IMG/VR virus record: IMGVR_UViG_3300033120_000574
Span: 75,129 to 139,128 of that record
Strand: one strand, 5' to 3'
DNA: 64,000 nucleotides
Source: a virus
Taxonomy: Duplodnaviria > Caudoviricetes
Made by a program: the position numbers and the translations under genes. This document shows positions 36,548 through 64,000 of the stretch, piece after piece. Every line of letters starts with the position of its first letter. Positions within the stretch are counted from its first letter, which is position 1. The notes below the pieces were generated by a model that was not told the DNA's origin, ran no database searches, and saw nothing but the letters and a program-made list of their open reading frames with translations.

Positions 36548-37378
36548 TTAGCGTCTCCAAATAGGTAGCGCAGGAGCACTCTGTTTTTCCAACAGAGAAC
36601 AGTGTGAACATGAGTTGTCCAAACTCTTATTCATATGTCCGCAAGCATTGCAGGACTTGTAGATCTGCACATTAACTTGTTCTGGTGCAGCTGAAACGTT
36701 CACAACTGGACGACCGTTTCTAAATGCTTCGTACAAATGTGGTTCTTTTGCAGCTGCAATAGGTTCAACAGTAATTTGTTCCTCTCCAGAGGAGACTGTA
36801 TCAGTTGCCACACTTATGGCTTTTCCAGACTTTGTGGACATCAAACGTGATGTCAGTGCTTTCAGGATTTCTTTTGGTGTGGACATATTTACTCCAGTGC
36901 GCGAACTAGGTCCTTGAATACTAGCAGATCGCTCATTTAAAAACAAGTGTTTGATTAGTTTACCATTACTTGCTTGCAGCTTAGCTTTAAATGCAAGCAT
37001 AGTATACTGTTTGATACTTCCTAAAAACTTCGGATTGTTATAGTGCTTTAGGTAAGCAGCCTTGGCTTCTTGCTCAGAGTCGAAGCCAAGCATTACCTTC
37101 TGTTCATCTATTTCTACAAATTCAGGAGCTTTTAGCTGTGTGACTACAAAGACGTTCTCAGCATGCGGGCTTGGTCCCACATAAACATCTACTTCTTCTC
37201 CATCCGTTCCAAGGGTACCACATATGAATCCGTAGGGATTCTGCATGTAAGTAGTACCCTTAGTGTCTGAAAATGGGTCGTACCAGTGTCGTTCTGTTCC
37301 TTGGTCAGTTTCGACACAAATACACAAGTCTTGATATGTAATATGTTTCACTACACACCTCTGTAGAAATCCAACCAA
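36548..37378 (-). CDS. Inorganic pyrophosphatase-like (InPase) domain protein
   Basis: 'YGFICGTLGTDGEEVDVYVGP...VFVVTQ...DEQKVMLGF...AKAAY' is the polyvalent-protein InPase signature. Confidence 0.8.
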   Translation of the reverse strand: MVGFLQRCVVKHITYQDLCICVETDQGTERHWYDPFSDTKGTTYMQNPYGFICGTLGTDGEEVDVYVGPSPHAENVFVVTQLKAPEFVEIDEQKVMLGFDSEQEAKAAYLKHYNNPKFLGSIKQYTMLAFKAKLQASNGKLIKHLFLNERSASIQGPSSRTGVNMSTPKEILKALTSRLMSTKSGKAISVATDTVSSGEEQITVEPIAAAKEPHLYEAFRNGRPVVNVSAAPEQVNVQIYKSCNACGHMNKSLDNSCSHCSLLEKQSAPALPIWRR

Positions 37379-40300
37379 GACTCGTCTTGGTCAAATGAGA
37401 CTTCAAACGTTTTAGTGTCAATGGACTTGGTGAAACCATCTGAATAAGAGGGTTTTGAATTATCTTCAGCTACTTGTGCTTCCGGTTTGTCTTTTCCTGG
37501 TTGTGCACTTGGTGGAGCTGTGCCACCACCAGCAGCTCCAGCAGCTCCGGCAGCAGCCTGCTGTTGCTCTAGTTGCCTACGTTGTTGTTGTGCTGTGGTG
37601 TATGTTGGGTTCAAGATCAAATCTCCATCAGCAACGTCAGGAAGGTCTTCTTGTCTACGAATCTCATTCAGGGTCATGTATGTTGATACTTGTTCCTTAC
37701 GTAGTTCATGCTTTTCTTGCTCTGTGAGTTCATCAAGACCAACAAAATCAAACGTGAAATTGTCGTCCAACTTATTAACCACGTTGTCATTTATCAGCTT
37801 AGCAAGGAAGCGAAGCATTGGCTTAAGCCCACGATCACGAGATGCCTTTAGCTTCCATTCTTGGCTTGATTCGAATAGAGGTGTCTGCTGAACACCGCCA
37901 TGCATGTCAAAGTTCAACTCTGCTGGATCGATCAAAAACACAGCACAGTTGTGTACAGCAAATCTGTGTGCTTGATATGTGTGTTCTCCGTCTACCTCTA
38001 TGTTGTAAACCTTTCCTTCAAAATGGTTTGTGTGAGAAGAAGAGACGGGAACGTAATAATACGTAGCACTTTCATAAATGGTAGAACGCAGTGCAGTCAA
38101 ACTACTCACTCTGTCACGTAACTTGTTACCCTTTGGCCCTCTCAACCAAGTAGCTAGTCTAGCGGAGTAGACACCATTAATATCTAAGCGGTGCAAGTCA
38201 TTAACAGAATTGAAACCAGTGTTTGTTACAGTGTAACGATGGGAATACACATTTTGACGAAACAACAGGTGGCGAATCTGTTCTAGTGCTGTTTTTGACA
38301 CAAGAGACAAAGTACTTACTGCAGCACCAGTGACGAAAGCAGGGACGGACCCGTCTCCTGCGAACACGCCGCTTATGAATGCACGTTGAACTTCTGTAGG
38401 AGCATCAAATAGCATCTTAGGAATCTTTTTCAATACAGCTTTTGAACCAAACAAATTTCCAAGAACATCAGCAACAAGAGAACTGTGCAAACAAATGTTA
38501 GCAGTGCTTTCTTTTGCTGCATAGGTACGAGAGTGTACTCCAATTCTAGTAGCTATGCGTTCAACAGCAGCTACGTACTCTTCTTCATGTTTTGCAAAAG
38601 TAAAGTATGCTGCTGACTCGGTTGTATTTCCTTCAGCTAAATACAACCCAAGAACGTAAGCTAGCTCTTCATCCAAAGCCCAATAACGTTGAATAAATTT
38701 TCCAGCATTTCCTTTAGGTGCAATATGCAAAGCATCAGGTGACACTCTGCAATTAGCGGCTCCCAATACGGCCAAACAATCGATTGTTTGGTCTTTTCCA
38801 ACAAATTCATACGTCTTCTTTGGTATGGTTAAGTAGTCAACGCCTTCAACGATTTCTCCTGCGTTTTTCCACGCAGGCTCACCAAATAGGCGAGAGCCGT
38901 TGTGCAAGGATGAGGAAACAACCCACATAGGATGTTCTGGAGTTACTTCGATGGTTTCTCCTGCTGTAAGGGTAACCAAAGGTCCACAGTATTCTGTGAT
39001 CTGTAAGTTACTCACATTGCGTGGTTGACCTGTGTGAGAAAATACCACATCTCCAGGCACTACAGATTCTATAGCTGTAGTCGACCCGTCTGCCATCGTG
39101 ATTGGTGTATTACCAGTGAAGCAGGTAATCTTGATCAGGTATTCCATCCACATGGAGTACTCCATCTCTTGATTACTTTGATGCAAAGGAACCCAGTCAA
39201 TACCCTGCTCTGATTGCATGATGGGAGTACGCCAAGCGTTGGTGACGCCCTCTACATTGTTCTTCCACTCACGTTTGAACACTTCTAACTGATCTCCAGT
39301 TAGATTGTCTCCCTTTATGTTCAAAATACCTTTCGGGGCTGAATTGGACGTTATACAGCCACCAGCGCTCCACCTATGTCCCTCATGTGTTTGTCTGACA
39401 TCAAACATAGGAACATGTACACCAATCACGTTAATGGATTTAATCTGAATCCATCGATAGTTTAGTGCCTCTTCTTGAGCAGAGGAGCGCAATGCTTTCA
39501 ACTGTGACTTACTTCGTGTGCCACCAGGTACATACCCTATTAACCGTTGTAGTATTCCTTCTTGTGCAAAGCGAGGAATCTTACCACCAGAATCCTTTCG
39601 ATTAGGAGAAACTGTTTTATATGTTTGTAGAAACCCAATCAGAGAAGCAAATTTGTTGTTTTCACAAACACGCAAATAGTGACAAGGTCTACCACTAGCA
39701 TTCATCAAAGAATGAGACAAGCTACTAGATATACCAAGAGACCACAGCAACTGTTGTACGCCAGCAATAAGGTTAGTACTAGAGCTACACACATATGCGT
39801 GAATGCCATTCTTAACGAACCCATCAGCACTGAAGTATCCGCGTAGAAAAGCAGCTCTGTTTTCTACAGTTTCTGCAAATAAACGAGAAGGAACAACTTT
39901 CTCATGTGATGCGGAAGAAGACATCCCAACAACGTTTGTCAAGAAATCAAACAAGCCTTTGTTTCGTATAACCAACGTATCAAGTTTAGTTCCTCCCCAA
40001 TCACCACCACTTTTACGCATATGATGTGATATTCCACGAGAACCAAGCATAGTTCGAAACTTTTCTTGTACCTCTGTGTCTTTGGGAGAGAACACGCAGG
40101 ATGTCGTGTAGTTTCTCTTATTTCCAGCATTTATCGAGCTACGTGTATCAGTTACGTACCCATCACCTACCAAAAATCCAATAAATTCGTAAAAAGGGGC
40201 ATCTAACAACCCTGCGTTTACTGTAGGTTGTTTTGGTTTTTTACCTACCTGAACATAAACAGGGTCTAGTTCATTGAATTCTAACAAGGCTTCACTTTGA

Positions 40301-41487
40301 GCTACAAAATCACCAACACGCAACTCTTGTAATTCCTTCATAACTGCTTGTCCATCACAAGACAAAGACAAGAACTTGTGATTTGGAGAGGTAATTAGAC
40401 TGTAATTGTTAGCCAACCCTACGCTAACAGCCTCTTTGTGGCCAGATGACACTACGTCAGAGGTAACCCACTCAGTTCCATTCCAGCAATCAAATACCTT
40501 TCCAACCAGGGAAGAGATAGGAACCAGCCCATCACGGGTATGAACAGTAGTATCTCCTGCTACACAACCTTGCATGAAAAAGCGTCTGTTGTACTCTTCA
40601 GCGTACAAATGTGCAGTGATTACAGTGATTAGTTGTTCTAGCTCTCCATAACCATAACCTTGCACATAGATGTCAGACCTGGGGTTACGTACACCAAATA
40701 CAAGTTCTTTGTTAGTGTATACGTTACGTTGCTGTCCATTGATTAACTGTACATATGCAGGGACATCATGAAGCTCTGGATTTTGAACCTTCATGGTCTT
40801 ATAGGGCTGGGTCAAGGTCTCAGCATGTCCACGCATCAAAGCATTGGCAGTATGCGTGGCGTGTGCCAGGTCCATATCCATGTGGTTGGATGCAATACGG
40901 ATTGTAGATGCATCTACAGCAAGAAATTCGTATGGCATTCCTTTACGGTCTGGAACCACTTCGAAAGTGGCTTGATCGTACATTAAGCTGTCACGAACAA
41001 GCTTCTTTAGGAAAGTTTCAAAGTCATCACGCACATATGGACTGTGTGGATTTGGGTCTTCAGCACCACAAGCATAGATGAACTTCTCTACAGACTGTAT
41101 GAATTCACGTTCACCTTTAGTCGTTAGTCGTGCGGGGTTCTTGTGTTTAACAGCAAAGCCGAGAGATTTGTTCAAACGAAACGGTGTAGCAAACTGGGCT
41201 ACTTGATTACATCTGGTTTGTAAAATAGCAGAGATGAGTGCTAGCTGCTGGGGAATGCGTTTAAGCGTTTCGTAAGACAACGAATAACGTCTGTCTTTGT
41301 AACCCATTGCAAACTGAATAGACAACGGGTCAAACACCAAAGACTTTGGACCTTTTGCAGCCAACTCTGGATCTAGCTTAGATTTCCTGATTTCTTCGGA
41401 AACCATGGAAGGAATCATGTTTGTAGCATCTCTCCACTTGGAGACGTGCTCAACCCACTTGTCTTGGTCTTTGAATCTGTCACTCAT
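37351..41487 (-). CDS. Portal protein with two inteins (about 578 aa after splicing)
   Basis: 'ILQTRCNQV', 'FLKKLVRDSL', 'RNPRSD..GYGYGELE', 'SRDRGLKPML'. Confidence 0.9.
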   Translation of the reverse strand: MSDRFKDQDKWVEHVSKWRDATNMIPSMVSEEIRKSKLDPELAAKGPKSLVFDPLSIQFAMGYKDRRYSLSYETLKRIPQQLALISAILQTRCNQVAQFATPFRLNKSLGFAVKHKNPARLTTKGEREFIQSVEKFIYACGAEDPNPHSPYVRDDFETFLKKLVRDSLMYDQATFEVVPDRKGMPYEFLAVDASTIRIASNHMDMDLAHATHTANALMRGHAETLTQPYKTMKVQNPELHDVPAYVQLINGQQRNVYTNKELVFGVRNPRSDIYVQGYGYGELEQLITVITAHLYAEEYNRRFFMQGCVAGDTTVHTRDGLVPISSLVGKVFDCWNGTEWVTSDVVSSGHKEAVSVGLANNYSLITSPNHKFLSLSCDGQAVMKELQELRVGDFVAQSEALLEFNELDPVYVQVGKKPKQPTVNAGLLDAPFYEFIGFLVGDGYVTDTRSSINAGNKRNYTTSCVFSPKDTEVQEKFRTMLGSRGISHHMRKSGGDWGGTKLDTLVIRNKGLFDFLTNVVGMSSSASHEKVVPSRLFAETVENRAAFLRGYFSADGFVKNGIHAYVCSSSTNLIAGVQQLLWSLGISSSLSHSLMNASGRPCHYLRVCENNKFASLIGFLQTYKTVSPNRKDSGGKIPRFAQEGILQRLIGYVPGGTRSKSQLKALRSSAQEEALNYRWIQIKSINVIGVHVPMFDVRQTHEGHRWSAGGCITSNSAPKGILNIKGDNLTGDQLEVFKREWKNNVEGVTNAWRTPIMQSEQGIDWVPLHQSNQEMEYSMWMEYLIKITCFTGNTPITMADGSTTAIESVVPGDVVFSHTGQPRNVSNLQITEYCGPLVTLTAGETIEVTPEHPMWVVSSSLHNGSRLFGEPAWKNAGEIVEGVDYLTIPKKTYEFVGKDQTIDCLAVLGAANCRVSPDALHIAPKGNAGKFIQRYWALDEELAYVLGLYLAEGNTTESAAYFTFAKHEEEYVAAVERIATRIGVHSRTYAAKESTANICLHSSLVADVLGNLFGSKAVLKKIPKMLFDAPTEVQRAFISGVFAGDGSVPAFVTGAAVSTLSLVSKTALEQIRHLLFRQNVYSHRYTVTNTGFNSVNDLHRLDINGVYSARLATWLRGPKGNKLRDRVSSLTALRSTIYESATYYYVPVSSSHTNHFEGKVYNIEVDGEHTYQAHRFAVHNCAVFLIDPAELNFDMHGGVQQTPLFESSQEWKLKASRDRGLKPMLRFLAKLINDNVVNKLDDNFTFDFVGLDELTEQEKHELRKEQVSTYMTLNEIRRQEDLPDVADGDLILNPTYTTAQQQRRQLEQQQAAAGAAGAAGGGTAPPSAQPGKDKPEAQVAEDNSKPSYSDGFTKSIDTKTFEVSFDQDESWLDFYRGV
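37948..39123 (-). mobile_element. Intein 2 in the portal (392 aa, LAGLIDADG)
   Basis: CFTGNT...TPEHP...LGLYLAEG...ISGVFAGDG...VHN/C. Confidence 0.9.
39343..40566 (-). mobile_element. Intein 1 in the portal (408 aa, LAGLIDADG)
   Basis: CVAGDT...SPNHKF...IGFLVGDG...LRGYFSADG...TSN/S. Confidence 0.9.
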
Positions 41488-53218: not shown

Positions 53219-56200
53219 TTATAAAGACGATGCAGTCAAGTCTACAACCTCACAAAAACCACCTGAACAAGCCAACGTCTGTGTACCAGACGTTGAATCT
53301 TCTAGTTCGAATTCTTTAAGTTTACTCCAATCAAAAGAAGTAGGCATCTTTGCCAACAAAACATCATATTGTTCCTTTGTAATAGCTTCATATGGTGCTT
53401 GGGCGTAAGTGTGGTCATTGCTAGGCAAAAAAGACACACCAGAGCAGGTATCGAAGTTGTTCCAAATCCAGTTACCTACTTCCAAAAATTCAGAGTCGGT
53501 ATAATACACAGTAATGGATGGTTTGTGTTCACACCAGTGCTCTTGATACATTGACCACAAGCGCAACTGATGCATCGCACCTACATCTGCGACGACCGTT
53601 GCTGTATCTGGACTTTTCATTGGAAATGAAAACACAAATACATCTTCAGGTTTCATGCTATCTGGTTCACAAGGAAACAATCCAGAGTCTCGCATCATAG
53701 TAGCCAGTGGATCTCTTTGATCCGCACGGACACGACGAATGTAATACTTGCTGAATCGAGGATGGATTCCACTAGAAGAATCCACCAGCTGGGACACGGT
53801 ATTGTGGCTCTTTACAGCGCCAGCATAGTACCAGTGTGTGTTTTCTACTTCAACGTCATAAGTAGGAACAACTCGGGACACTTTAGAGGACACAACTTTT
53901 CCAAGGATAGAGGACTTTGTAGAAGTCTCATGATGCCACGCAGAAACATTACTAGCCTTGATGCTGTGCTTCTTAAGCATTTGAATAGAAGTGGGGTCTT
54001 GGATAGCAGTTCCAGACAACAACCACATGTGCTTACTCTCCTGAAAGTTCTTGCCTTTCGAATTTAGAGAACGGCCAATGCCAAGTCCCACTGACCAAGC
54101 AACATCCTGTAGTTGCTTAGCAAAACCATCATACGCAGTGGTGAACATAAACCTAGACACGTTATTAGTAGTTGAGATGCATCCGTCACTGTCTAGAAGA
54201 CCTGCGAAAAAGGCAACAACAGACTCTCTAGACGACTCTCGTATCTTACGAGGTATTGACATAGTTGACTTATCAAATCCATTAGAAATAAACCAGTCAT
54301 AAAGAAATACACTACCCTTTTCTAAAACAAAAGCATTTCTTCCTTCTGAAGCGGGAAGGATGTTACTGTCTACATCGAACAGCTCCTTAAGAACATTTTG
54401 TGCTTTTTCCAAATGTGTAATGTTCTGATCTATGAATCTGATTCTAGACTTGTTAGGAGACAAGCAGCCATCCCCGTATAGGTAACCAATAAGCCACGCC
54501 AGGTTTGGCGTCATGTGAGAAGGTTGTTTTCCTTCAGACTTAACTTGAGCATGATTTTGGTCGATTGGTACTGCCGTGTGTATTAATTCTGCTTCACTTT
54601 CTTTGGAGTAAGAGGTGAGACACACATCTAAGATATCGCCCGGTTGGATGTTTGCAGCAGACACCCAATCGTTAACATCTGTATACTTATGAAGTTTGGA
54701 TCTGTCGTAACGTTGTTTTACAAACCATTTATGGTTTGTAGTTGACTCAACAGTCATACCATAAGACAAAGTCAACTCAATAACAGGCTGTTCTCCGTTA
54801 GCATACGTCTTTGAGATTTTGCTATTGGAGGTTCCTTGAAGAGCCTGCACGTTGCCTTGTACATCACACCAAACACCACTTCCATGTGCCTCCATCAACT
54901 CTTCCAAAGTTAACAGTCCCTTTGATGTAGACGTAAGAGCGTCCCCTGGTCTACAACCACTAGGCTTGCAACAAGTAATACTTGTGCTTTGGTTTATTCC
55001 AAGTTTTTCACTCCAGACTTTATTTGTGGAAATTGCTACTTCACGCAAGGTATTAAGCCATTCAGGCAGTTCAGCAGCTTCTGGATTGCCCATAATAGGG
55101 TGGTCCATAATACCAGTAAGAGAAACACCAAGAAGAGCCTCCTCTACTGTGTTGCGTTCCCAAACCTTTCTTAAATAGCGAAATGAAGTAAGTGTAGCTT
55201 GCAGAGTTCCAAGAATAGTTGCTTTAACGACTTTGTCTTTTAGCGTGTCTAAAGTATCTGTAGACCGGATCACCACCTCTGACAAGTTACAAAATTGATT
55301 GGGTCTAAGAATTATTTCACTACAGGGATTAGTTCCAAACGAATGGTTTGCGTCACGTCTACCTGTCTTTGCTGCTTGCTTTTGTGAAGCAACCCTACTG
55401 AAGATTCCACGTTCTCCAGACTTAGATTCATACAAAGACTGCCATTCTTTTAGAAATATCTCAAACTCTGGTTTCTCTGTATAACATGCTGAGTTGTTGG
55501 CAAGCTGGCGCTGTTTGTTGTTCTCCCACCATTGTCCAGATTTAGCAAGACGCATACGGTCATCGCTCAAGTTTGATAGACTTATGAGAGCAGATCTACG
55601 TACACCACCTACCACAACGATATCAGCAATCATGCATACCAAGTCATGGCACTCTAAAGAAGAAAGTTTTCTACCAGCTGCTTTCTTGAACATTGTTACA
55701 CAAAACTTAAACAACTTCACAAGAGGCTCTGGACCACTTGCACGTCCGCCAAACGTCTTTAGACGTGCTCCCGCCAAGCGAAGATTCGAAACATCCCATT
55801 TGGGTACGGTACCGTTATACAAAAGAGTAAGTAATTGCCGTAGCGAAGTAGCCCAACCAATCTTGGAATCAGCCACTACAATGGTAGTATCCGAGTCATG
55901 AAAGGTCTCAGCAATATCTGGAAGCTGACTGACGTATTGTCGTTCTACGCTAAAGCCTACTCCAGTACCACACATAAGGATGTACATGATCTCATCAAAC
56001 ACTTTGGGGTTGTCAATGACCGCATAGCTGCAGTTATACCCGGAAACTTGGTCGCGCTCTAGAGCAGGACCAGCGGTCATCAAGCAACGCATAGAAGGCA
56101 TAACTTCAAGGTCGTGAATAGGCGTAAACAGGGCTTCAATCTCTTTGGCAAATGTTGGATGTTTCTTTGCAAAGAATGAAACGTAACGACCAACTGTTTC

Positions 56201-56368
56201 CTTCCACGTCTCGCGGCGTCCCTCATCTTCAAGCCAACGGCTATAGCGTGACAAGTGAATAAATTCAGAATACAAAGGTGTTGCAGTTGAGTCGAACGCT
56301 GTATCCTTCTCTTGTTCTACAATGCTGATAAAGTTCTTATTTGAACGAATTGTGGGAAGCTCTGTCAT
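53219..56368 (-). CDS. nrdJ: Class II (B12-dependent) ribonucleotide reductase with intein
   Basis: 'PSMR', 'YNCS', 'GTGVGFS', 'VGGVRRSA', 'TNPCSE', 'KPSG/T', 'WCEHKPS', C-terminal C...C. Confidence 0.92.
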   Translation of the reverse strand: MTELPTIRSNKNFISIVEQEKDTAFDSTATPLYSEFIHLSRYSRWLEDEGRRETWKETVGRYVSFFAKKHPTFAKEIEALFTPIHDLEVMPSMRCLMTAGPALERDQVSGYNCSYAVIDNPKVFDEIMYILMCGTGVGFSVERQYVSQLPDIAETFHDSDTTIVVADSKIGWATSLRQLLTLLYNGTVPKWDVSNLRLAGARLKTFGGRASGPEPLVKLFKFCVTMFKKAAGRKLSSLECHDLVCMIADIVVVGGVRRSALISLSNLSDDRMRLAKSGQWWENNKQRQLANNSACYTEKPEFEIFLKEWQSLYESKSGERGIFSRVASQKQAAKTGRRDANHSFGTNPCSEIILRPNQFCNLSEVVIRSTDTLDTLKDKVVKATILGTLQATLTSFRYLRKVWERNTVEEALLGVSLTGIMDHPIMGNPEAAELPEWLNTLREVAISTNKVWSEKLGINQSTSITCCKPSGCRPGDALTSTSKGLLTLEELMEAHGSGVWCDVQGNVQALQGTSNSKISKTYANGEQPVIELTLSYGMTVESTTNHKWFVKQRYDRSKLHKYTDVNDWVSAANIQPGDILDVCLTSYSKESEAELIHTAVPIDQNHAQVKSEGKQPSHMTPNLAWLIGYLYGDGCLSPNKSRIRFIDQNITHLEKAQNVLKELFDVDSNILPASEGRNAFVLEKGSVFLYDWFISNGFDKSTMSIPRKIRESSRESVVAFFAGLLDSDGCISTTNNVSRFMFTTAYDGFAKQLQDVAWSVGLGIGRSLNSKGKNFQESKHMWLLSGTAIQDPTSIQMLKKHSIKASNVSAWHHETSTKSSILGKVVSSKVSRVVPTYDVEVENTHWYYAGAVKSHNTVSQLVDSSSGIHPRFSKYYIRRVRADQRDPLATMMRDSGLFPCEPDSMKPEDVFVFSFPMKSPDTATVVADVGAMHQLRLWSMYQEHWCEHKPSITVYYTDSEFLEVGNWIWNNFDTCSGVSFLPSNDHTYAQAPYEAITKEQYDVLLAKMPTSFDWSKLKEFELEDSTSGTQTLACSGGFCEVVDLTASSL
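53801..54955 (-). mobile_element. Intein in NrdJ (385 aa, LAGLIDADG)
   Basis: KPSG/CRPGD...IGYLYGDG...FAGLLDSDG...KSHN/TVSQL. Confidence 0.92.
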
Positions 56369-59842: not shown

Positions 59843-60211
59843 TTATTCACCTTGGGTGGAAGCGTTTGCTAGAAGGCGCTCAGAGAGCTTCCTAGACCCT
59901 GCTTGAAGCACGTCACCCACAACTAGCAGAGCAGCAGCTGGAAGCAGTCCTAGAGCCCCTGGAGCGCCCGCAATCACTAGTACTGACTGACACAGACCAG
60001 CACCGAAGATGTAAGCACCCAGCAGACGCACGTACGACAGCGCTTGTAGGCGAGAAACAACACAAGCACTAGCTGCGCATAGTGCTACAAGTGCAAGCCC
60101 GCCAAACGCCGCCAGGATGCCACCACCCTCATGTACTGAGAGTGAGGTGATGCCAGCACCTGCGAAGGTTAGCTTATTGGTGACCATAGTTGTTAACGAG
60201 TGCTTTGCCAT
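59843..60211 (-). CDS. Multi-TM membrane protein
   Basis: Probable start MAKHSL; 3-4 hydrophobic helices. Confidence 0.55.
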   Translation of the reverse strand: MAKHSLTTMVTNKLTFAGAGITSLSVHEGGGILAAFGGLALVALCAASACVVSRLQALSYVRLLGAYIFGAGLCQSVLVIAGAPGALGLLPAAALLVVGDVLQAGSRKLSERLLANASTQGE

Positions 60212-60412: not shown

Positions 60413-60440
60413 AAAAAGGTACTACCGAAGTAGTACCTTT
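60413..60440. terminator. Intrinsic terminator after the WDL gene array
   Basis: AAAGGTACTAC-CGAA-GTAGTACCTTT; T-run on the minus strand. Confidence 0.8.
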
Positions 60441-60478: not shown

Positions 60479-60978
60479 TTACAAATCCCACACCGACTTA
60501 AAGGCTTCCATCTCAATTGGAGGAAGCCTTATCAAAGTACGCAGCAGTTGTATTATCTTCACTGTGAACCACTGGTCTACTAGAAAACTAACAGTGCCTG
60601 TGTCCATATTGATGACGTGCTGCAACTCTACATGTGTACTTGTATCCTGAACGCTTTGTTTGAGTGAAAAGCTAGTGTTTGTAAAGGCTTCCTCTGGTAC
60701 GTAGAAGTCTCCAGCAAACTTTACATTTATTCCTCTAACGCGTCCGTAAATTTCAAACAAATGCTTGTGTCTAGGCATTTGCTTTTTGTTACGCCTATGA
60801 CAGCCTTGTATACATACAAGTGTTCTTCTTGTGTAGATGTTGCCACTTCAGGGTGAAGCAGTTTAATAGGAACTAAAGCATGTGGAGAATACTCACCTTC
60901 TTCAAGGTCTCCTACTTTATGAACTACACGCAAGATAGCTTGGTATGGATGTTCCGGTTTGCTTGATAGTATTGCCAT
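60479..60978 (-). pseudogene. WDL-family member split by a 1-nt frameshift (83 aa + 99 aa ORFs)
   Basis: Combined span 500 nt (about 166 aa, the family size); ends SVWDL. Confidence 0.5.
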
Positions 60979-61049
60979 GATGCACCTTAAGCATGATTAA
61001 CTTTCTAGGGTTTAATTACCTCCAACTAGATTAAAGGTAATACGTTGTT

Positions 61050-61559
61050 TTATAAGTCCCATGGAAATATAGTTTTGTCGGAAAAGTTTTCATCAGGAAC
61101 TTTCTGCAAAGTTCCAACAGGCATTTCAATGACACTTTCTTCGAAAGCATTAAGCAGCAGATCTACTACGTCACAAGTTGCTAGCATGCGGTCTTGAACC
61201 TCAAAGAATTCAGCTTTTGGATCAAGCTGTGTGCCTCTACCAATGTTTGTAACCGTGTGTAACTGAAGTCCAAGAAACGTTAACTGCAAACCAGAGATGC
61301 CTCTCCTACCATCACTCTCAGGGCAAAGCATAATGTTTAAGTACCTTTCCCCCACAAACCACGTTTCCCAAAGCGTAACTTTCTCGAATACAACCACTTT
61401 GTTTGTTTGTACGAAAGGTGTTACCGACCCTGTGATGTAGGTTCTAAGTGTATTGTGAGAAAACAAGCTAACAACTACGTTTGGATCTATAGACCTCCTA
61501 TTGGATTCATAGAATTCCCAAAACTTGTAAATGTCATTTTCAGTAAATTGAAAGCTCAT
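61050..61559 (-). CDS. WDL-family protein
   Basis: MSFQF...IFPWDL*. Confidence 0.7.
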   Translation of the reverse strand: MSFQFTENDIYKFWEFYESNRRSIDPNVVVSLFSHNTLRTYITGSVTPFVQTNKVVVFEKVTLWETWFVGERYLNIMLCPESDGRRGISGLQLTFLGLQLHTVTNIGRGTQLDPKAEFFEVQDRMLATCDVVDLLLNAFEESVIEMPVGTLQKVPDENFSDKTIFPWDL

Positions 61560-62155
61560 AGATCCCAATCAAATGTAGGAGGTTGTGGTTTTGGCAAAGC
61601 CTTTGCTGGTTGCTTCTTAACAAAAGCATCTAGTGGGTCATATACAAAGTCAGAAGACATCTGGACGTCTCCAGCGGCATAAACAGCTACTACGTCATCT
61701 ATGGCCTTCATGATTCCAGACTTCTCAACATAGAAGTTATCCAAGTTAATGTACACAACACTAAGTAAGTCTTCTACTCTATAGCAATAACTACCAACCT
61801 TGAATGCTTCTACATCTGGTCGGAAGGTGTTAACCGTTCCAGACATTGAGAGAGTTTCTAAGCTGCAGAAGTTGGTACCAAACTTAAGTCTTATTACACC
61901 CGTGCCGTCACCTACCGGAAGTAGAAGACTGTACACGCCTGCTTCCTTCATCAAAAGCAACTCAGTAAGCCTAGAATCTCTGTCAGCAGAGGGTGCCCCT
62001 ACACGGTCGTTGTTGCCCACCTGAAGCCTGCTGTATGGCACCATACTGCCAGGACAAGGAATCACAGCACGGTCGTAAGTCGCAGGCTTAAGCGCCCACA
62101 AAACGTCGATTAGAGTGAAGAACGAGTCTGCAGTGTTTTGTAAATTAGTTTTCAT
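61556..62155 (-). CDS. WDL-family protein
   Basis: MKTNL...TFDWDL*. Confidence 0.7.
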   Translation of the reverse strand: MKTNLQNTADSFFTLIDVLWALKPATYDRAVIPCPGSMVPYSRLQVGNNDRVGAPSADRDSRLTELLLMKEAGVYSLLLPVGDGTGVIRLKFGTNFCSLETLSMSGTVNTFRPDVEAFKVGSYCYRVEDLLSVVYINLDNFYVEKSGIMKAIDDVVAVYAAGDVQMSSDFVYDPLDAFVKKQPAKALPKPQPPTFDWDL

Positions 62156-62685
62156 AAATCCCAATCAAACGTAATATTGTTTTCGACTTCTAAAGCTTTA
62201 ACAACTGGGCTAGCAGGGTTAGCTACAACAGAATACCCACTCACAGTCACTTCTTTCACAACAGAGAACAAGATTCGAATCAAGTCCGAAACGCATACGA
62301 ACATTGAAGATCCAGGATAAAGCCTAAACATATGGTCATCTGGAAGTATGCAGACATCAGCAGCTGTAACTGGTTCCCAACCAACACTAGGTTCCCAACG
62401 AATAGTTGTGTAAGTTGTATTTCTCAATGCATCTTGAATTACAAACTCATAGTACCGCCAATGCTTGTTGTTGTATCCATCGACAGTCGTAACCAACGAA
62501 GTGTTTACCAACTGAATAATAATAGGTATGCGGTTACGTGTTACTGAGTCATTCGCATATGAGCTTACATCACACCCATGGTTTTTCCTTTGCTCACCAA
62601 ATGCTTGGTCAAGTGCATAGTTCTCGTAAGAACTCAGCATAGCTAACTTATCGGCGACAAATGGTAAATCAAGTACGCTAATCAT
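62152..62685 (-). CDS. WDL-family protein
   Basis: MISVL...TFDWDL*. Confidence 0.7.
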   Translation of the reverse strand: MISVLDLPFVADKLAMLSSYENYALDQAFGEQRKNHGCDVSSYANDSVTRNRIPIIIQLVNTSLVTTVDGYNNKHWRYYEFVIQDALRNTTYTTIRWEPSVGWEPVTAADVCILPDDHMFRLYPGSSMFVCVSDLIRILFSVVKEVTVSGYSVVANPASPVVKALEVENNITFDWDL

Positions 62686-63203
62686 AGATCCCACACAGAT
62701 TCAATGTTTACTAACTCTTCTACAACCTTAAACGCTTCACGCTTGTATCCGCGAAAGAGAATACGAATGAAGTCGTTAACATCAAACAACAAGCTAGAGC
62801 CTTCATAGATTGGAATCAGCGCATGATGAACGTCCGTATTAACGTTCGACAAGTGTTTGCAAACTTGCCAACCAAGAACACCAAACTGGCCTTCACCATA
62901 AGAATACCCAACACGAGTTACGTTATATCCGGCAGGGTCAGATATCTCAAAGTGATACTCATTCCTATAATACTGATCACCACTGTGATCATACAATACC
63001 TGAGACTCGAACCTAGCTAACCTAATCTTGTGCGTTGTAAATATCTTTCCATCTCCAGAAGTTGCAGTGATTCTAAACCAGCTTAAATCAAACCTATTTT
63101 GTTTCTCTAACCATTCATTCTCTTCTCTTACCAAAGCACTGAAAGAAGCAGCTGGATGATACGGCAAATCCTTTGCAGATAATACTACATCCTTGATACT
63201 CAT
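62682..63203 (-). CDS. WDL-family protein
   Basis: MSIKD...ESVWDL*. Confidence 0.7.
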   Translation of the reverse strand: MSIKDVVLSAKDLPYHPAASFSALVREENEWLEKQNRFDLSWFRITATSGDGKIFTTHKIRLARFESQVLYDHSGDQYYRNEYHFEISDPAGYNVTRVGYSYGEGQFGVLGWQVCKHLSNVNTDVHHALIPIYEGSSLLFDVNDFIRILFRGYKREAFKVVEELVNIESVWDL

Positions 63204-63709
63204 AGATCCCACTCCAAGTTAGATGAAACAACCAAGCTAGGCAGAAAGCTATCAAATAGGATTTTGATCAAGTCAAGAACACAAATACAATGAGCTTCAC
63301 CGCAAGATACCTTAGCCACTATATCCGTGGGCGATAATATAAACCCACCTAATCCAACTCTCTCCGCTGCATACCAACCCACATTACCCTGATAACGATG
63401 CTTAAGCTGAAGAGAGTAGCTACCTAACAAATCCGAGAACAAGTCAAATCTTACCGTCAGTACTTTACCCAACATGTATGTGTCTTCTACACTAAGAGTA
63501 TGCACTTGAACACAAAACTGCTTATACACGTCCTCGTACAGTCCTTCAATTACATAGGTATTCCTCTCACATAGCTTTGCTTTATAGAGCGCGTCCATGC
63601 TAGCAATGTCTAAGTCTTTGAAACACATAAAGGGTGTATAGGGCAAGCTCCACACGTCAATAGCTTTGAATGACATCGTTGGGTAGTTGACCAGCTTCTC
63701 AGTAGACAT
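63200..63709 (-). CDS. WDL-family protein
   Basis: MSTEK...NLEWDL*. Confidence 0.7.
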   Translation of the reverse strand: MSTEKLVNYPTMSFKAIDVWSLPYTPFMCFKDLDIASMDALYKAKLCERNTYVIEGLYEDVYKQFCVQVHTLSVEDTYMLGKVLTVRFDLFSDLLGSYSLQLKHRYQGNVGWYAAERVGLGGFILSPTDIVAKVSCGEAHCICVLDLIKILFDSFLPSLVVSSNLEWDL

Positions 63710-64000
63710 CTAACCGTTATAGCACGCAGTAATACTGCTTCAAGCACTATCGAACGACACTAGCCAACTAGTGATCCCCGCTAGTTTGCGCATATGTGTG
63801 TCCAATCACGTGTAGGTAGGTATCAACTATGCGTATGTACCTATACCTAGAAAATTTTGTAATATATTTTCCAAGGACTAGGTATCAATGTCGAACTGCT
63901 GTATGCACCGTATCAAGTACGCCACCTTTCTAACTTGATACGAGTATCACATCGTAATACTTTCATGTCTAAAAAATTATTAAACAATCAAAAATAAGGA

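Follow-up and report, generated by a model that had tools for sequence, protein, structure and literature searches.

Docking tails are an established concept, and the closest described examples are the sliding-clamp motifs of bacterial proteins and the replisome tails of phage T7. The subject here is an array of six consecutive phage genes whose products all end in Trp-Asp-Leu (WDL), a sequence that fits neither consensus. The array lies at positions 63709 to 60479 of the window, a stretch of 64,000 nucleotides (nt) that forms the right-hand 64 kb of IMG/VR record IMGVR_UViG_3300033120_000574. The source contig is a linear viral record of 139,128 bp with a completeness estimate of 82%. It is probable, at roughly 0.6, that the WDL ending is a near-C-terminal docking motif that tethers different phage proteins to one common site. 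No description of a WDL C-terminal motif in phages was found in the literature.

Proteins of phages T4 and RB69 bear clamp-binding C-terminal tails. In bacteria, the beta-clamp binding motif QL(S/D)LF is found at protein C-termini (PMC9690074), and phages exploit it, for example through MuC of phage Mu (PMC12867686). These motifs are short hydrophobic peptides, often at the extreme C-terminus and behind a flexible linker, that occur on unrelated DNA-metabolism proteins sharing one hub, and the WDL tails recall this arrangement. However, the WDL tails lack the Gln of the motif, have Trp-Asp-Leu in place of Leu-Phe, and carry an acidic residue inside the core. Among 17 diverged tails, Gln was found at position -8 in two and never at the position of the clamp consensus.

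In phage T7, the acidic C-terminal tail of gp2.5 docks on gp5, the family-A polymerase. The gp4 helicase also has a negatively charged C-terminal tail, and this docks on basic patches of gp5 (PMC8472574). The phage described here is like T7 in having a family-A polymerase without a clamp (PolA, DnaB-like and DnaG-like proteins were identified, and no clamp match was found in Pfam), and one WDL bearer is encoded directly behind the primase. The T7 tails are long stretches of acidic residues with an aromatic residue at the end, unlike the WDL core, which has one or two acidic residues. The WDL tails end in Leu (or in Leu followed by Ser, Thr or Leu), are acidic at one or two of their last six positions, and follow linkers that are Pro/Lys-rich or neutral. 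The WDL bearers are also neither a helicase nor a single-stranded DNA-binding protein (SSB), and the tail is found on an expanded accessory set as well.

The original prediction compared the ending with the SSB C-terminal tip and with HbYX tails. The SSB tip is D-D-D-I-P-F and HbYX tails need a penultimate Tyr; neither pattern is present in the WDL tails. What is alike is an acidic and hydrophobic peptide at the extreme C-terminus, behind a disordered linker, of the kind that is read by a pocket. The topology for SSB is the inverse, since there one hub carries the tail and many partners read it.

To our knowledge, the host-takeover genes of phage SPO1 have not been described as sharing a C-terminal tag. 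Like the array, whose genes are putatively early, the host-takeover module of SPO1 (gp37-gp60, in the terminal redundancy, NC_011421) consists of small early genes behind promoter-like sites near the genome end, and these are mostly uncharacterised and vary in content among relatives. In contrast to this similarity in layout, its products have no sequence similarity to the array proteins. No WDL-stop was found in four cultured Herelleviridae genomes, SPO1 included (567 kb in total). The ankyrin/PRANC proteins of poxviruses offer another likeness, with variable recognition bodies on a constant C-terminal handle, arrays at the genome ends, and fast turnover. However, their handle is folded and at least 30 residues long, whereas the WDL handle is a linear peptide of 3-6 residues that is also present on conserved replication and repair proteins.

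The WDL array and two further bearers of the tail

Six co-oriented, consecutive open reading frames (ORFs) on the minus strand end in Trp-Asp-Leu-stop, with the coordinates and C-termini given in the original prediction. Gene 1 (63200..63709) encodes a protein of 169 amino acids (aa), p1, that ends in NLEWDL. It is followed by gene 2 (62682..63203; p2, 173 aa, ESVWDL) and gene 3 (62152..62685; p3, 177 aa, NITFDWDL), and these three products form the p1-p3 family. Gene 4 (61556..62155; p4, 199 aa) has a Pro/Lys-rich linker and ends in PQPPTFDWDL. Gene 5 (61050..61559; p5, 169 aa) ends in KTIFPWDL, encoded as TGG GAC TTA TAA, and has no coupled successor. Gene 6 (60479..60978; p6) ends in AFKSVWDL, encoded as TGG GAT TTG TAA, and is broken in this genome. 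Four junctions in the array read TGGGATYTATGA with an ATGA overlap, as had been noted. The array proteins are acidic, with net charges from -2 to -9.

The ending is common in this genome and is not restricted to the array. Of the 1014 contig ORFs with 50 aa or more, eight have WDL as their last residues, against a rough, composition-based estimate of fewer than 0.1 expected, and the next commonest tripeptide was found 5 times. The degenerate pattern TGGGAYYTRTRA occurs 6 times in the window, with 0.11 expected from shuffles. The two bearers beyond the array are encoded at contig positions 39966-40424 and 62336-62773. One is a protein of 152 aa whose residues 66-118 match the WGR domain (PF05406, 33.7 bits; cut-off 22), and a Pro/Lys-rich linker leads to its ending, SQSFAWDL. 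Its gene is preceded by an HNH endonuclease gene and is coupled through the same 12-mer to a PD-(D/E)XK nuclease gene. The other is a 145-aa protein ending in KTDWDL, and its gene is flanked by those of the DnaG-like primase and of a CobS-like AAA+ ATPase that has a CobT/vWA partner.

The six array products had been taken to be paralogs, and this can be shown for three of them. With the last 8 residues trimmed, only genes 1-3 were detectably homologous, and genes 4-6 matched nothing in the array. Among 1.84 billion representative proteins, a p1-p3 profile detected just two further homologues, which end in SWDL and EWDL. In hhalign comparisons of the trimmed proteins, p2-p3 scored 90.5% and p1-p3 79.6%, and the scores with the two distant homologues were 95-97% (96.6% for p1-m1). 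The scores of p4, p5 and p6 against p1-p3 and one another were 1.4% or less. The helix V.DL[IL]..[LV][FY] that had been reported ahead of the linker is present as described, and p1-p3 and the two distant homologues share it in the invariant form V-x-D-L-I-x-I-L-F. Genes 4-6 have a similar element, a strand and an amphipathic helix, ahead of the linker.

Other searches gave little for the bodies of these proteins. No Pfam, PHROGs or NCBIfam match was found for the array proteins, the primase-adjacent protein or the neighbours, and a megablast of the array against the phage collection gave no match. A word-indexed search for homologues of the WGR protein recovered the query alone. ESM Atlas gave low-confidence models only, and no usable lead, for the primase-adjacent protein and p4.

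A model of p2 was made with AlphaFold2 from eight sequences. The predicted local distance difference test score (pLDDT) was 83 and the predicted template modelling score (pTM) was 0.78, and the model shows an antiparallel sheet with flanking helices over residues ~5-150. The pLDDT drops to 60/51/42 over the last ~23 residues, and for this reason the tail of p2 is predicted to be flexible. Variable bodies with a constant C-terminal peptide on a flexible linker had been proposed, and this arrangement agrees with the p2 model and with the presence of the tail on unrelated bodies, including the WGR protein. No clear match to the fold of p2 was found with Foldseek against the PDB and BFVD (best E 0.035-0.057) or with VIA-align against 48,161 chains (best Z 4.6), a result that does not make the fold new. 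For p5, a mixed alignment of 21 sequences gave a pLDDT of 48; its order of helix, beta-meander and helix is like that of p2 and was maybe imposed by the alignment.

Conservation of the tail and turnover of the genes

Conservation was explored in Logan assemblies, of which L004, L005, L006, L008 and L009 are close to the window and L007 is more distant. The tail was retained in orthologues down to 28-45% identity. The p1 orthologue is 92% identical in L004 and 37% identical in L007, where the proportion of synonymous differences (pS) is 0.66; that of p3 is 31% identical in L007. Between the window and L007, synonymous sites in these two genes are near saturation. The p2 orthologue is 74% identical in L007 and 86% identical in L008, where it bears the tail of gene 3. 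The residues that precede the tail do change in L007, from NLEWDL to GMEWDL (gene 1), from ESVWDL to ESEWDL (gene 2) and from TFDWDL to NSVWDL (gene 3). The W, D and L do not vary among 17 diverged tails; Phe is present at -5 in 9 of 17 and Glu or Asp at -4 in 11 of 17.

A second array, of six genes, is present on L011, a metagenome contig of 3.8 kb, and its first gene encodes one of the two distant p1-p3 homologues. Five of the six end in [F/Y]-E-W-D-L. The remaining gene (813-1025) ends in TETDFEI, in which an aromatic, an acidic and an aliphatic residue follow one another as in WDL, and this ending may be a variant that the motif tolerates. No similarity to the p1-p3 family or to one another was detectable for the other L011 proteins, the WGR protein, the primase-adjacent protein and the accessory protein of genome G001 (below). 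A search for related loci in IMG/VR with p2, the p1-p3 alignment and the membrane protein of L011 found nothing.

IMG/VR does contain relatives with head proteins that are 84-88% identical, and these include G001, a complete genome of 169,063 bp with direct terminal repeats. G001 has no array and no WDL-stop, and in three of its proteins one residue follows the motif at the C-terminus. They comprise the orthologues of the WGR protein (ETEWDLT) and of the primase-adjacent protein (ETDWDLS), and a lone accessory protein of 157 aa (EYEWDLL) that is encoded at the syntenic spot of the array, beside a PNK-phosphatase gene and a 281-aa gene. Across G001, G002 and L169, W-D-[L/I] is followed by one extra residue, in the forms WDLT, WDLS, WDLL and WDIL; the last is the ending of the primase-adjacent orthologue of L169 (STEWDIL).

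Scans with the pattern TTTGANTGGGATYTATGA were also made. IMG/VR gave five single matches and no array, and one of these is in an unrelated phage, in a small ORF that resembles a lipoprotein gene and ends in NFEWDL. At least 120 loci were found in metagenomes, and the matches listed are single sites consistent with chance (JetA-, UDG- and ParA-family proteins are among them), except L082. The L082 match is a true orthologue of the WGR protein (28% identical, 37.3 bits) that ends in STEFEWDL and has the same HNH neighbour. In the same kind of search, an ORF of ~57 aa ending in GD[K/S]VSFDWDL was seen to recur on cellular metagenome contigs of 0.28-1.2 Mb (L084 2179-2352 and L085 7758-7979; also L095 and L102). 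It has no Pfam match, and may have been picked up by chance in the scan or belong to an unrelated family of small proteins.

Descent alone could possibly account for a shared ending. All bearers would then come from one ancestral gene, and the tail would be a slowly decaying relic without a shared partner. Genes 1-3 are true paralogues, and the strand-helix element ahead of the linker in genes 4-6 is in keeping with this. However, the tail is the sole invariant part, with bodies too diverged for any likeness to be detected and with saturation at synonymous sites; the WGR protein is a member of a different Pfam family; and a relic would not remain invariant over 17 diverged tails. We consider this explanation very improbable.

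The array genes turn over as cassettes. They are under purifying selection, with a ratio of non-synonymous to synonymous change (dN/dS) of 0.23-0.57, against 0.02-0.15 in neighbouring genes; they are real coding genes in which non-synonymous change is several-fold faster than in the neighbours. Deletion variants are present in several metagenomes. The body of gene 3 is deleted in runs X3 and X4, and in one such variant p2 is fused in frame to the tail of p3. Genes 2 and 3 are deleted in L004 and L009, leaving an out-of-frame stub, and gene 4 is retained in both. In run X2, gene 1 is almost wholly deleted in frame (456 nt). In all deletion variants, the tail and the junction were kept. Nucleotide identity between the window and L007 is ~90% upstream of gene 1, ~50% in gene 1, 80-85% in gene 2 and 40-50% in gene 3. 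The switches coincide with gene borders, and this mosaic fits an exchange of cassettes between phages. The original prediction had suggested that the junction 12-mer might serve as a shuffling site. The turnover of cassettes is borne out, but support for the 12-mer itself as the crossover point was not found, since the mapped deletions end 7-30 nt upstream of it and share 0-3 nt.

Gene 6 is broken in this genome alone. A 13-nt deletion after 60796 splits it into frames of 83 aa (60978-60727) and 99 aa (60778-60479). In relatives, the gene is intact and encodes 170 aa. The contigs from two other runs have 13 additional bases at this site, and the frameshifting deletion in this genome is therefore real. 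The sole run that shares the broken state is probably the source of the window itself. The C-terminal frame of 99 aa has its own ATG and keeps the WDL tail, and a truncated product is conceivable.

A further alternative is that the ending is a by-product of a nucleotide signal at the junction, such as translational coupling, a ribosome-binding site or a recombination site, and that the peptide has no function. Six of the eight tails of the genome lie in an identical 12-mer that overlaps the next ATG, GGGA directly precedes the next start codon, and the deletion variants always retain tail and junction together. However, 29 tails from the window and from relatives use CTA, TTA, TTG and CTG for Leu, GAT and GAC for Asp, and TGA, TAA or TAG as the stop. 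The four kinds of junction are the ATGA overlap, a one-base overlap, a 3-nt gap, and the absence of a following gene. Such variety in codons, stops and junctions indicates that selection acts on the protein. WDL is also kept where there is no successor or a different junction (genes 5 and 6, L010, and three L011 genes), where it is written with other codons and with all three stops, and the motif persists in G001 despite the added codon. The residues at -5 and -4 (F and E/D) are enriched as well. There are 28 ATGA overlaps in the genome, and the six behind WDL genes read TGGGATYTATGA. The other 22 lack the 12-mer, which is therefore the product of WDL plus an overlapping start and not a general coupling signal. 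Selection at the protein level, as originally argued, is thus upheld by varied codons, stops and junctions and by retention where synonymous sites are saturated. The diversity of codons and junctions has largely refuted a nucleotide signal as the explanation, and there is very little chance that it is correct.

Candidate functions of the tail

If the tail is a docking handle, [S/T]-F-[E/D]-W-D-L would be a short linear motif at, or one residue from, the C-terminus, with a flexible and often Pro-rich linker before it. The common partner would be associated with the replisome or with DNA, and candidates are two phage proteins, the family-A polymerase and the DnaB-like helicase, and host factors, for example the sliding clamp. 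Partners of this kind are ranked first because the two bearers that are conserved across the clade lie in replication and repair modules. The array would then be a lineage-specific expansion, a single promoter-to-terminator unit of acidic, fast-evolving, individually dispensable early accessory proteins that use the same handle. Tentatively, and with less expectation that it is right, the tail could be a portable handle on a single replication/repair hub that gathers the WGR-nuclease and primase-associated factors of the phage itself, together with early effectors that are swapped. A purely anti-host role is disfavoured because the tail is also on these two proteins of replication and repair modules.

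Several points weigh against the docking reading. No binding partner was found for the WDL tail, and the relatives are too few for co-variation. The motif fits none of the known docking consensuses that were checked. In G001, a residue follows the Leu, which makes a pocket that reads the free Leu carboxylate unlikely or not universal; likewise, the free carboxylate that PDZ-type recognition requires is not always offered by the motif, which is not at the very C-terminus in G001, G002 and L169. A phage-encoded hub of the clamp type is unsupported, since no SSB or beta-clamp was found by Pfam in the contig or in G001. Early expression is predicted from a consensus promoter match only. Finally, genes 4-6 could be very diverged paralogues, which would mean fewer independent acquisitions of the tail, and even then the WGR and primase-adjacent proteins would stay independent cases.

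A short, flexible, near-terminal hydrophobic and acidic peptide on many unrelated proteins could instead be a tag that an enzyme reads, such as a C-terminal degron or a processing or modification signal, for example for the scheduled clearing of early proteins. C-terminal tags read by proteases are established (ssrA-type), and the array proteins do look like transient early accessory proteins. However, scheduled destruction is less obvious for the two bearers that are conserved proteins of replication and repair modules. No dedicated protease or modifying enzyme accompanies the WDL genes, and the motif resembles no degron that we know of. A tag of this kind is unlikely.

The tail might also target a structure, either as a cargo signal for the capsid (encapsulin-like) or by binding a small membrane protein encoded next to the array (59843..60211, minus strand, 122 aa from ATG). 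Cargo-loading peptides at the C-terminus, behind flexible linkers, are known for HK97-fold shells. The small membrane protein adjoins WDL accessory genes in three diverged lineages, since homologues are encoded after the L011 array (36% identity) and beside the single accessory gene of G001. However, it is linked to the array by position only, and the order differs in G001. In addition, a strong intrinsic-terminator-like hairpin (60415..60440, minus strand, an 11-bp stem followed by a T-rich run) closes the array and lies between it and the membrane gene. The WGR and primase-adjacent bearers would be unexpected as cargo. Targeting to a structure thus appears to be quite unlikely.

Should the less expected reading, a portable handle on a single replication/repair hub with swapped effectors, be correct, the array would be part of an undescribed modular system of effectors on one hub, with cassettes exchanged between phages at the tail-coding junctions. 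A shared handle of 3-6 residues would offer an experimental route into early and accessory phage genes, most of which cannot be read from sequence. A single synthetic peptide could recover the common partner and so give a cellular address to at least 8 proteins at once. It would also show how accessory genes are recruited, in that a protein that gains the tail joins the hub, and would provide a natural example of gene exchange at the level of cassettes bordered by a conserved coding junction. If the partner is a replisome or quality-control protein of the host, the peptide would mark a new interaction site that phages exploit.

Flanking sequences and features of the phage

The region upstream of gene 1 (63710..63990, minus strand) contains three direct TTGATAC boxes and one inverted box, and is probably a cluster of operators and promoters. 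This control region (290 nt) is ~90% identical to that of L007, though the gene 1 proteins are only 37% identical. No Rfam match and no unusual RNA fold were found in it. The best match to a sigma-70-like promoter (63861..63888, minus strand, TTGATA-16-TATATT, 10/12) is ~150 nt upstream of gene 1, and the promoter-like hexamers, which are a consensus match only, are kept in L004 and L007.

At least four independent assemblies (this record, L004-L006, L009 and run X1) end within a few bases of one another at window positions 63946-63990, and run X2 has repeat-like contigs of 46-55 nt at the same positions. This suggests that a repeat or a physical genome end is present just upstream of the WDL array. 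No terminal repeat was found between the two contig ends. Contig positions 1-21343 have genes on the plus strand, and in 23361-139128 nearly all genes are on the minus strand. Were the contig ends joined or near each other, transcription of the WDL array and of the left-end genes would diverge from one control region, as in the terminal redundancy of SPO1.

The contig belongs to an uncultured wastewater myovirus. Its gene content includes a tail sheath and a major head protein (PHROG 752), and the genes for the portal and the ribonucleotide reductase carry inteins. Since the head protein shares 42-47% identity with its counterparts in SPO1-like Bacillus phages (Herelleviridae), the relation to these phages is distant. 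Near-identical or related DNA is present in wastewater and freshwater metagenomes, and few public data sets contain the lineage.

Inteins or homing-endonuclease inserts are present in several core genes. These are the genes for the family-A DNA polymerase (two), the ribonucleotide reductase and the portal, as well as a 610-aa ORF beside a nucleotide-kinase gene (L003 793-5301; window 53219-56368 and 37351-41487; L002 11907-13739). The reductase of L004 is 664 aa and has no insert.

Replication genes outside the window encode the family-A DNA polymerase with its two inteins (PF00476 DNA_pol_A, E 8e-75, in an intein-bearing ORF of 1502 aa), the DnaB-like helicase, the DnaG-like primase, a UvsW-like helicase and an SbcCD-like pair, and no SSB with an OB fold was found. 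The DnaB-like helicases of three relatives (L003 11827-13215, which is contig 63827-65215; L170 23-1078; L169 12-971) have a conserved acidic C-terminal tail that ends in G-[D/A]-[L/V]-I-L-D. It differs from the WDL tail, is the second conserved tail seen among proteins of the replication module, and recalls that of T7 gp4.

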